A DNA stretch of 64,000 bases from a virus. The stretch lies in the IMG/VR virus record IMGVR_UViG_3300032893_000002, positions 110,668-174,667 of that record; one strand, given 5' to 3'. This document shows, in pieces, positions 12,500 through 34,297 of the stretch (positions are counted from its first letter, which is position 1; each line of letters begins with the position of its first letter). The notes under the pieces were generated by a model. It saw only the letters and a program-made list of their open reading frames with translations, was not told where the DNA came from and did no database searches. The position numbers were made by a program, and so were the translations under genes.

Positions 12500-12799
12500 T
12501 TAACTTTCTGTTCGCATCTCTGCTATAATGCTCCTTACGCGATCAAATAATGCTTTCAATTCTTTCGTATTGTTAATGAATTGAATTTCACTTGCAGTTA
12601 GCTTACGTAGATATAAGTTTGAATCAAAAACTAATGCTTCGCCACACTTTAAACATATTGTAAAAGCTCCGTATTCCGGAGCTTTCTCTGCTTCCTCCCT
12701 ATTAGATCCAGCTATGGATGTGGCTTCGTCCATTTTATAGCCGCAAGTCGGACAATGTGAAACTGGAACCGGATAATTGATAAACTGTTGCGCAAACAT
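12500..12799 (-). CDS. Zinc-ribbon protein
   Basis: CPTCGYKM ... CLKCGEAL four-Cys pattern. Confidence 0.4.
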   Translation of the reverse strand: MFAQQFINYPVPVSHCPTCGYKMDEATSIAGSNREEAEKAPEYGAFTICLKCGEALVFDSNLYLRKLTASEIQFINNTKELKALFDRVRSIIAEMRTES

Positions 12800-13209
12800 T
12801 ATTTCTTCTCCAATCTAATCCGCGGCCAAAACTTAATACCCCCACGAGGAGTGAAACGACCTTGAACTTCTAGCCAGCGGGGCACTAATAACGCAAATAG
12901 ATCATTTGCTATTTGTACTGTCATTGCTTCATGAAATATACCTGTTGATCTATATGAAAATAGATAGAGCTTTAATGACTTGCTTTCAACGCACCAATCT
13001 TGAGGAGAATATTTAATATAAATCTCAGCAAAATCTGGCTGCTTTGTTAATGGACATAGACTTGTAACTTCAGGCGCTACAATTTCAATTTCAAAGGGAA
13101 GCTGACTTGGACTAGGGAACTTTTCTAGTAATAACGGATTATATTCTGTGATATATTCTGTCTTACCACTTCCTAGTGAAACTAATCCGGCATGTAAATC
13201 AGTTGTCAA
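12799..13209 (-). CDS. queF: NADPH-dependent 7-cyano-7-deazaguanine reductase (unimodular QueF)
   Basis: QueF signature E-S-K-S-L-K-L-Y (CVESKSLKLYLFSYR) plus catalytic-Cys region TSLCPLTKQPDFA; 136 aa, as in YkvM-type QueF. Confidence 0.8.
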   Translation of the reverse strand: MTTDLHAGLVSLGSGKTEYITEYNPLLLEKFPSPSQLPFEIEIVAPEVTSLCPLTKQPDFAEIYIKYSPQDWCVESKSLKLYLFSYRSTGIFHEAMTVQIANDLFALLVPRWLEVQGRFTPRGGIKFWPRIRLEKK

Positions 13210-13286
13210 TATCTCTCCTTTCGCAAATAAAAATATCCGAACCGATACTGCAAATTCGATTCGGATATTTTAGTACAAACAACGTT

Positions 13287-33059: not shown

Positions 33060-33574
33060 TGTGTTCTCCTAAGTTTTTAAATCTTCCGGTTGCGGTTTAG
33101 GAACTGGTGTATCGTTCCAATATCCAAGCTGTCGTGCTAAATGTATCACACGATAAATATCGCCTATATTGACTGCGATTGTGTTAAGCTTAACATTTGG
33201 CCAGTCTGTAACAAGTAGTTCGTACAATTGTTTTGCTGGCATACCTTCATGTGTAATTGCTGCTATCCGTATTGCATCTACTATACCATGCTCGCGCTTC
33301 TTCTGTCTATTTTCTGGAATAGTAGGTAATGGCGGAGCATAATCAGATTTAAAACCATCTGGTCCAGGAATAGGAAATGTAGCATTTCTTGCTGTTGCTG
33401 CTTTATTAAACCAATTCTGTGCATCAACCGATAACGCGTCCCATACACTATTACTTACTTTATTTACAGTTTCTACTAATCTATACAGAAACGCATTATT
33501 GTCTTCGCCGTCTATCTGCGAAATTGGCTCAACAGTACGAGCTGCTTTTAAGACTTCTTCGAAGACATTCACGA

Positions 33575-34297
33575 TTAGACTCCTTTAAATCTTTCGACTA
33601 AAGGATCTTTTTCGCCTGCTTCTTTGAAGCCAAAACTTCGTAAAATACAAGAATGACATTTTCCGCAAGGAGGAACTTGTCCCGCATAGCACGTATGACT
33701 ATATGCCAATGCTTCCCAACAACCTGTTAGCTGTTTTGATAGTAAAACTGTCTCCTTCTTTGACAACTTTATTAATGGCGTATGAATTTTGAATTTTTGC
33801 GCGGTTCGCCCAAGAGCCATATTTATTGTCTTAGCTTGATGCGATATAAAATTTGCTCTGCAATCTGGATAATTAGCATTATCCATCTCACAAACGCCTG
33901 TAACTAAATCAAAAATGCCTTGATGAATTGCTCGATTTGCTGCTAAAGTTAAGAAGAAAGCATTTCGCATTGGAACAAATGTTAACTCAACTCTGTCGCC
34001 AATTATCTTATCCATTTCTTCATATGAAGAATACGTCTCTAATGCATTCGCTGGATCAGTTAAAGGCGAGCAGCTTTTCAAAATGCCCGGAACATCTACA
34101 ACTTCATGTCTAACACCAGCTAGTTCAGCTATCTTCTTTGCTGCATTTATTTCTGCAGCATGCCGCTGTCCATAGTTAAATGTTAGAGCTACAACATCAA
34201 ACTTCTGTTTGGCCCAAAAAAGACAAGTAGTTGAATCTTGTCCGCCAGAAAAAATTACTAGTGCCTTTCTTCTATGTTTCGTCCTTGGTCGTCCCAT
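33575..34297 (-). CDS. queC: 7-cyano-7-deazaguanine synthase
   Basis: PP-loop ALVIFSGGQDSTTCL and C-terminal zinc cluster CYAGQVPPCGKCHSC; 240 aa. Confidence 0.85.
   Translation of the reverse strand: MGRPRTKHRRKALVIFSGGQDSTTCLFWAKQKFDVVALTFNYGQRHAAEINAAKKIAELAGVRHEVVDVPGILKSCSPLTDPANALETYSSYEEMDKIIGDRVELTFVPMRNAFFLTLAANRAIHQGIFDLVTGVCEMDNANYPDCRANFISHQAKTINMALGRTAQKFKIHTPLIKLSKKETVLLSKQLTGCWEALAYSHTCYAGQVPPCGKCHSCILRSFGFKEAGEKDPLVERFKGV

Follow-up and report, generated by a model that had tools for sequence, protein, structure and literature searches.

A probable 7-deazaguanine DNA modification locus with a long-form DpdA in the replication module of an uncultured large phage

Introduction

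The locus described here raises the question why a phage should encode enzymes of 7-deazaguanine synthesis amid its DNA replication genes, and which base would finally be placed into its DNA. It lies on a 64-kb stretch of DNA (IMG/VR record IMGVR_UViG_3300032893_000002, positions 110,668 to 174,667), called the window below, which belongs to an uncultured large phage and represents a phage replication and recombination module. No close DNA match for the window was found among 50,697 phage records. The genome probably comprises about 160 kb or more, and all absences reported below refer to the window.

In the pathway in question, FolE, QueD, QueE and QueC convert GTP to preQ0 (7-cyano-7-deazaguanine), and QueF converts preQ0 to preQ1 (PMC6884629, PMC10516641). 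Once the DNA has been replicated, the transglycosylase DpdA puts the deazaguanine base in the place of guanine in the duplex, and many restriction enzymes are thereby blocked (PMC6884629, PMC10516641). 7-Deazaguanine DNA modification is thus an established phage defence against restriction enzymes. A preliminary description of the window had reported genes for FolE, QueC and QueF and had read them as such a DNA modification pathway. A further gene, located two small genes downstream of FolE (27451-28548), was overlooked there and encodes a DpdA-type transglycosylase. With this gene included, the locus very probably constitutes a deazaguanine DNA modification system. The four genes are:

27451-28548, minus strand: DpdA-type DNA guanine transglycosylase, long form of the DpdA1 type (open reading frame (ORF) of 365 amino acids (aa), probable protein of 349 aa)
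29012-29650, minus strand: FolE, GTP cyclohydrolase I, entry step of the pathway (Pfam, TIGR00063)
33575-34297, minus strand: QueC, preQ0 synthase, 240 aa (Pfam, TIGR00364)
12799-13209, minus strand: QueF, unimodular NADPH-dependent preQ0 reductase (preQ1 synthase), 136 aa (Pfam, TIGR03139)

Identification of a DpdA-type transglycosylase

The homologs of the DpdA gene start at the position of Met17 (28500), directly behind the stop codon of the upstream ORF, so that the protein probably comprises 349 aa (27451-28500). The ORF has no match among the Pfam or NCBIfam models, including the bacterial tRNA-guanine transglycosylase (TGT) family PF01702; it does match PHROG 887, 'queuine tRNA-ribosyltransferase', with an E-value of 1.8e-41. 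In tblastn searches about 190 phage records were matched, including the transglycosylases of Enterobacteria phage 9g, Escherichia phage CAjan, Pseudomonas phage Iggy and Streptococcus phage Dp-1, to which residues 8-158 are 30-35% identical (34% and E 5e-18 for 9g). These four proteins are DpdAs studied in PMC6884629 and PMC10484667. Identity amounts to 41% with the DpdA of Edwardsiella phage vB_EpM_ZHS (ZHS) and to 36% with DpdA1 of phage phiSM.

An alignment of 60 homologs revealed D11-S12-G13-A14, D47 (in LDV), H80 (in PVYH), H134 and D153 (in SxDS) as invariant (numbering of the 349-aa protein), and the motifs are likewise visible in the DpdAs of phiSM, Dinoroseobacter phage R26L and ZHS. 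By analogy with TGT, we take the Asp residues of DSGxF/Y, LDV and SxDS to be the active-site residues. An AlphaFold model computed from the same alignment reached a pLDDT of 94.8 and a pTM of 0.92. Searched against the PDB with Foldseek, it retrieved only generic TIM barrels. Among predicted viral structures, all 27 matches with E-values of at most 0.001 were phage proteins (best E-value 1.3e-12), the named ones being queuine or tRNA-guanine transglycosylases and the others uncharacterized. Matches to DpdA1-type phages reached an E-value of about 1e-12. Structural matches also included the Vibrio phage nt-1 protein R9TGF0, a presumed DpdA2 (E 5e-4), and the phiST protein M4SLA5, a presumed DpdA3 (E 8e-3).

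A conserved His distinguishes DpdA1 from DpdA2, which lacks it (PMC6884629). The present protein combines similarity to the 9g DpdA with the invariant His80, which, judged by its motif, would correspond to the His at position 196 of that paper. We therefore assign the product of ORF 27451-28548 to the DpdA1 type. The C-terminal part of the protein, roughly 170 aa, recurs only in some 90 uncultured homologs with lengths of about 350 aa; a single-protein query of IMG/VR with this DpdA returned no relatives.

Because a DpdA-type transglycosylase is encoded, DNA rather than tRNA is the likely target of the pathway, and the DNA modification proposed in the preliminary description is much strengthened by this gene. 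Since the long form of DpdA escapes the current Pfam and NCBIfam models, annotation pipelines would call such a pathway queuosine biosynthesis and miss its link to DNA.

Integrity of QueF, FolE and QueC

QueF matches the Pfam QueF model with an E-value of 3.4e-30 and the NCBIfam equivalog TIGR03139 (preQ1 synthase) with 131.6 bits at a cut-off of 86.9. Its core aligns throughout with Bacillus subtilis QueF (PDB 4F8B; E 7e-35), Cys52 standing opposite Cys55 of 4F8B, and the entry of the C55A mutant (4FGC) aligns at the same position. The nucleophilic Cys (SLCP), QPDF, the NADPH motif ESKSLKLY (consensus for unimodular QueF: E(S/L)K(S/A)hK(L/Y)(Y/F/W)) and FHE are all retained, and with them the Cys, the Asp, the Glu and the His-Glu pair. 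The catalytic Cys and Glu, on which an active QueF had been made to depend in the preliminary description, are thus both present in the alignment to 4F8B. The protein is 48% identical to the QueF of phage Dp-1. Phage QueFs of this type are true preQ0 reductases that complement an E. coli ΔqueF strain (PMC10516641).

FolE matches the Pfam model GTP_cyclohydroI (E 1.4e-63) as well as TIGR00063 (188.4 bits, cut-off 181.6), and the zinc and catalytic motifs CCEHH (Cys-x-His-His) and HSC (His-x-Cys) were found in its sequence. The true start of FolE is likely the ATG at 29629. It is 62-68% identical to the FolE proteins of the related loci L006 and L008. For QueC, the corresponding values are E 2.5e-61 (Pfam QueC) and 193 bits (TIGR00364, cut-off 150.3). 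QueC contains an SGGQDS PP-loop and a C-terminal Cx8CxxCxxC zinc motif (letters CYAGQVPPCGKCHSC), and shows 75% identity to the QueC of L008 and 54% to that of ZHS. FolE, QueC and a unimodular QueF therefore lie where they had been reported, with their diagnostic motifs and with scores above the equivalog cut-offs, and all three look catalytically intact.

Arrangement of the genes within the replication module

DpdA, FolE and QueC lie together in a single local block that spans 6.8 kb, and every predicted gene of the region is on the minus strand. Besides the three enzymes the block contains:

28502-28828, minus strand: small ORF of 108 aa between FolE and DpdA, conserved in one relative
29595-30359, minus strand: GIY-YIG/NUMOD3 homing endonuclease gene (Pfam GIY-YIG, E 9e-14)
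30414-33059, minus strand: major-vault-protein (MVP)-like gene, 881 aa (Pfam MVP_shoulder, E 6.4e-21; Vault_3, Vault_2)
33069-33572, minus strand: conserved 167-aa protein directly downstream of QueC, two small helical domains

The 108-aa ORF matched nothing in Pfam, PHROG or NCBIfam; it is 55% identical over 67 aa to the gene directly upstream of the DpdA gene of L008. The GIY-YIG gene overlaps the start of FolE, and no such gene is found at the equivalent position in L006, L008 or ZHS. The MVP-like gene is likewise missing at the equivalent place in relatives. Since both uncultured relatives described below lack the two genes between FolE and QueC, we regard them as insertions in the present phage, and the MVP-like gene probably stands outside the pathway. 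Phage MVPs have been described previously (bioRxiv 10.1101/2023.11.10.566534); in the phage collection, homologs (42-43% identical) are confined to the genomes of three huge uncultured phages (LR756500, LR756501, LR756503).

Homologs of the 167-aa protein, 218 aa long in L006 and 193 aa long in L008, adjoin QueC there. Its family comprises 170 cluster representatives, and the Pfam model HTH_32 is matched by 6 of 42 members. From these similarities it is probably a helix-turn-helix (HTH) DNA-binding protein with a putative link to the pathway. As a substitute enzyme for an absent step it was rejected, being a small, helical, HTH-like protein of two domains and having no catalytic-looking conserved residues.

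The surrounding replication and recombination genes are:

6273-7259, minus strand: Mre11
10688-11704, minus strand: RecA
13287-14378, minus strand: gp32-like single-stranded DNA-binding protein (SSB)
17704-18642, minus strand: clamp loader
20632-23133, minus strand: family A DNA polymerase with N-terminal uracil-DNA-glycosylase (UDG) domain
23657-24712, minus strand: sliding clamp
39552-40415, minus strand: primase-like gene

QueF is located between SSB and RecA and starts 77 bp after the SSB gene. The preliminary description had regarded the scattering of the pathway genes over 20 kb as unusual. In this form the view is not supported: DpdA, FolE and QueC belong to a single block that is split by the GIY-YIG and MVP-like genes, which relatives lack there, the position of QueF between SSB and RecA is shared with a relative, and Edwardsiella phage ZHS and Dinoroseobacter phage R26L likewise have such genes interleaved with those for replication. 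The dispersal of the genes goes back to the ancestor of the lineage, and insertions of mobile elements came on top of it.

Search for QueD, QueE, DpdM and DpdN

The enzymes that tailor preQ1 are DpdM, a methyltransferase (DUF3109, CxxxCxxCC), and DpdN, a formyltransferase. A Pfam scan of 125 selected ORFs of the window revealed no PTPS (QueD), radical-SAM (QueE), CxxCxxCC (DpdM, PF03692) or formyltransferase (DpdN) domain, and tblastn with the QueD, QueE and DpdM proteins of R26L, phiSM, ZHS and the 176-kb relative found nothing in the window either. Custom profile hidden Markov models (HMMs) were built from 49 QueE, 82 QueD and 4 DpdM sequences and run unfiltered against all six-frame stop-to-stop ORFs of at least 30 aa; the best E-values in the window were 0.37 for QueE, 1.2 for QueD and 0.1 for DpdM. 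That QueD and QueE are not in the window, as had been stated before, is thus confirmed by three kinds of search. The only CxxxCxxC protein found in the window, of 178 aa (37996-38532), was discarded as a candidate for QueE or DpdM, as it lacks the CC, matches no family and is kept beside the primase in relatives.

Sequences from other phages were also used to look for a QueD gene belonging to the present one. Searching a database of 5.8 billion proteins with the QueD domain of the 176-kb relative gave, among the matches listed (about 65% identity), none on a contig placed in the present phage. Against JGI metagenome contigs, all 80 loci retrieved with this domain were from other phages, whose DpdAs are about 30% identical.

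Relatives of the phage

Two uncultured relatives were found, a 176-kb JGI contig (Ga0376646_0000374, with loci L006 and L009) and a 164-kb ENA forest-soil contig. Both encode a long-form DpdA that is 57% identical to that of the window, both show the gene order QueC ... FolE ... DpdA ... clamp, PolA(UDG), clamp loader, and both encode DpdM-like CxxxCxxCC proteins. The 176-kb relative possesses the complete set of FolE, QueD, QueE, QueC, QueF, DpdA and DpdM in dispersed form, from which we infer that the lineage uses the pathway. The order in L009 is SSB, QueE, three small genes, QueF (61% identical to that of the window), a 94-aa gene, DpdM, RecA, Mre11, Rad50 and a QueD fusion.

The QueE of L009 (8408-9196, 262 aa) is divergent. 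It aligns with the QueE of ZHS at an E-value of 7e-12 and carries the N-terminal motif QGEG...GC; in its radical-SAM cluster motif a very long insert separates the first Cys from CDT. No precomputed Pfam match exists for this protein, and on rescanning Radical_SAM was reached only below threshold (E 8e-4). A radical-SAM QueE of this type can therefore slip through standard annotation. DpdM of L009 has 174 aa, the motif CPEKCGACC and a match to PF03692 (E 5e-8). The 335-aa ORF at L009 19318-20325 joins a DUF559/Vsr-like N-terminus to QueD (PTPS, E 2.8e-23; CSHAHGH) and appears to be a fusion or a joint miscall. In the 164-kb relative a DpdM-like gene of 297 aa has QueC on one side and the counterpart of the 167-aa protein gene on the other. 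The QueC of L006 (4279-4983) is only 32% identical to that of the window, whereas its DpdA and FolE are 57-62% identical, which suggests a replacement of QueC within the lineage.

Compared with these relatives, the window shows several empty slots. As QueF starts 77 bp after the SSB gene, the slot of QueE is empty. Both positions of DpdM in the relatives are empty as well, since no such gene follows QueF and none lies between QueC and FolE. The slot of QueD would fall outside the window, to its left, because no Rad50 gene follows Mre11 before the left edge; this part is filled by a gene with an OmpA domain and by genes for ABC transporters. An ENA contig of 50.8 kb that belongs to the same phage (k141_1636348, assembly ERZ27256510) reaches about 32 kb to the left of position 1; the portion compared corresponds to positions of about 2800-18700 of the window. 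Searches with the proteins of the left end yielded short contigs or no match. Near-identical copies of the pathway genes of the phage are present in several metagenomes.

Comparison with known systems

Streptococcus phage Dp-1 encodes DpdA, FolE, QueD and QueE as well as QueC and QueF and carries 2'-deoxy-preQ1 (dPreQ1) at about 1.7% of G (PMC6884629). Like the present phage, it combines a DpdA1-type transglycosylase (about 34% identical over the core) with a unimodular QueF and has no DpdM, so that the predicted product dPreQ1 is shared. Unlike the 64 kb studied here, its genome contains QueD and QueE. The present phage is also much larger, its pathway genes are interleaved with replication genes, and its DpdA has the C-terminal region common only to the uncultured relatives.

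Among cultured phages, Edwardsiella phage ZHS (OM621816) has the replication module most closely related to that of the window. Its order of RecA, clamp loader, PolA, clamp, DpdA-FolE-QueC and primase is the same as here and is followed by a helicase; the identity of FolE is 52%, beside the values for DpdA and QueC given above. It differs in its short DpdA (266 aa), its genome of 71 kb and in that no QueF was found within the 30 kb examined. An 'organic radical activating enzyme' gene, which we take for QueE, lies about 10 kb past QueC, and the block has neither a homing endonuclease nor an MVP-like insertion.

The 176-kb relative shares the long-form DpdA, the order of the module and the placement of QueF between SSB and RecA, but differs in the presence of QueE, QueD and DpdM. 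By analogy with phages that encode DpdM, it would carry methyl-dPreQ1. The phages phiSM and VH7D follow the same logic of DpdA and QueF (phiSM DpdA1 is 36% identical over its core), but carry DpdM, make methyl-dPreQ1 and have their genes in a tight cluster, and VH7D uses the DpdA2 subfamily. The bacterial Dpd system puts dPreQ0 or dADG into bacterial DNA (PMC6884629). Its DpdA/DpdB structure (PDB 7ui4) shows merely 12% identity to the present DpdA. The window showed neither a DpdB-like partner nor a restriction module (DpdC-K); no search aimed at DpdC-K was made.

Proposed pathway and alternative explanations

In the pathway we propose, FolE would convert GTP to dihydroneopterin triphosphate (H2NTP), QueD and QueE, encoded elsewhere in the phage genome or supplied by the host, would yield CPH4 and then CDG, QueC would make preQ0, and QueF with NADPH would reduce it to preQ1. 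The DpdA-type enzyme would then replace guanine by the deazaguanine base in phage DNA that has already been replicated, and the modified base would protect the DNA of the phage against restriction enzymes of the host. Taken as a whole, the findings are probably best explained by four enzymes of the known phage 7-deazaguanine DNA modification pathway within a replication and recombination module, with dPreQ1 as the likely product. For the final base by itself we lean slightly towards dPreQ1, provided that the QueD and QueE steps come from outside the window or from the host. Since QueF is present and neither DpdM nor DpdN was found in the window, dPreQ1 is the most likely candidate. The earlier proposal that QueF points to dPreQ1 is favoured by this combination and by the precedent of Dp-1 (PMC6884629). 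In addition, the QueF-associated DpdA2 of VH7D prefers preQ1 (PMC10516641).

Several observations weigh against this explanation. DpdA1 of phiSM was inactive in E. coli (PMC10516641), so that insertion of preQ1 has been directly shown for a DpdA2 only, and the preference of the present DpdA for preQ0 or preQ1 cannot be read from its sequence. As the relatives carry DpdM, a tailoring enzyme could be encoded beyond the window. Neither QueD nor QueE occurs anywhere in the 64 kb, and QueE is missing from the very slot between SSB and QueF that is filled in the 176-kb relative, for which reason the pathway may be incomplete or dependent on the host.

These points bear on two other explanations, the first of which keeps the DNA modification system and changes its product. 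The final base might be dPreQ0 or a mixture, or preQ1 might be tailored further, e.g. to methyl-dPreQ1, by an enzyme that is encoded outside the window or is of a type not yet known. All DpdAs characterised before PMC10516641 inserted preQ0, as stated there, both uncultured relatives encode the DpdM-like CxxxCxxCC proteins, and the 64 kb searched are part of a genome that probably comprises about 160 kb or more. On the other hand, the window contains no DpdM or formyltransferase and both DpdM slots of the relatives are empty, there would be no use for an intact QueF if the pathway ended with preQ0, and Dp-1 with its equal gene combination carries dPreQ1. We consider another final base rather unlikely. 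The pathway might also be partial or decaying, in that QueE and perhaps QueD and DpdM were lost and the remaining enzymes draw on host intermediates or give no meaningful modification. QueE and DpdM are indeed missing at the places matching those of the 176-kb relative, with SSB directly followed by QueF, and the block and its surroundings have received mobile genes, namely those for GIY-YIG and HNH endonucleases and the MVP-like one; moreover, the use of host-made intermediates by phages without biosynthesis genes is discussed in PMC6884629. However, all four remaining genes are full-length with their catalytic motifs and occur in near-identical copies in several metagenomes, which argues for selection on them. 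The position of QueE is variable, as shown by its distance of about 10 kb from QueC in ZHS, and it may thus lie outside the window. Decay of the pathway appears unlikely, still more so than a different final base. QueD and QueE are not obligatory in any case, as numerous known phages with a DpdA gene have none or just some of the biosynthesis genes.

A service of these genes to tRNA, i.e. an increased supply of preQ1 or queuosine for host or phage tRNAs with a transglycosylase acting on tRNA, is highly improbable. FolE, QueC and QueF are the enzymes that bacteria use for the queuosine of tRNA, and a tRNA gene is present in the window. The transglycosylase, however, is of the DpdA type, has no match to the bacterial TGT and resembles the DpdAs associated with DNA modification in PMC6884629, and the genes are embedded in a DNA replication module. 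Queuosine occurs in tRNAs with GUN anticodons. The only tRNA found, tRNA-Thr(TGT), is for this reason no queuosine substrate.

A variant of the proposed DNA modification is a split pathway, in which QueE, and perhaps also QueD and DpdM, would really have been lost from the phage. The phage would then provide FolE, QueC, QueF and the long-form DpdA with its clade-specific C-terminal domain, while the host would provide the steps from H2NTP to CPH4 and CDG, and the product would be dPreQ1 instead of the methyl-dPreQ1 predicted for the relatives. We regard this variant as rather unlikely; if true, it would be a natural case of a switch of DNA hypermodification within a lineage. Since close relatives differ in the presence of QueE, QueD and DpdM, the lineage could show how phages change the identity of their modified base. 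The known picture of how the system works is left unchanged by these findings, which are modestly new in describing an uncultured lineage of large phages not described before, its long-form DpdA and the variation of QueE, QueD and DpdM among relatives.

Other features of the window

Outside the pathway and the core of the replication module, the following features were recognized:

7256-8041, 10117-10701 and 26585-27202, minus strand: homing-endonuclease-like genes (GIY-YIG/NUMOD3, HNH), in addition to 29595-30359 listed above
14440-15135, minus strand: NADAR-domain protein
41674-42486, minus strand: R2K-clade ATP-grasp protein
55894-55969, minus strand: tRNA-Thr(TGT), the sole tRNA gene found in the window

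A further GIY-YIG gene was noted among the small ORFs, with no position assigned to it. The N-terminal domain of the polymerase (20632-23133) belongs to the uracil-DNA-glycosylase superfamily, and the same fusion is kept in the uncultured relatives.

The left edge is occupied by a host-like cassette (428-4106, minus strand). It comprises a protein of 605 aa whose C-terminus forms an OmpA peptidoglycan-binding domain, an ORF of 79 aa, a permease-like protein of 260 aa (BPD_transp_1, E 2.6e-5) and an ATPase of the ABC importer type, all of them below the NCBIfam equivalog cut-offs. The ABC transporter was considered as an importer of pathway precursors and rejected, as its similarity to importer ATPases is merely generic and stays under every equivalog cut-off. 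At 48160-50606 (minus strand) a nicotinamide phosphoribosyltransferase-like gene (NAPRTase family, E 1.5e-27) lies beside a weakly phosphoribosyl pyrophosphate (PRPP)-synthetase-like gene, which by their similarities suggests a phage NAD salvage pair. Finally, a 316-aa protein (35646-36596, minus strand) contains an LPG_synthase_C domain, i.e. the C-terminal domain of phosphatidylglycerol lysyltransferase (E 9e-15), and is conserved, with 53-59% identity, in the two uncultured relatives, where its gene likewise lies upstream of QueC at a distance of a few genes.

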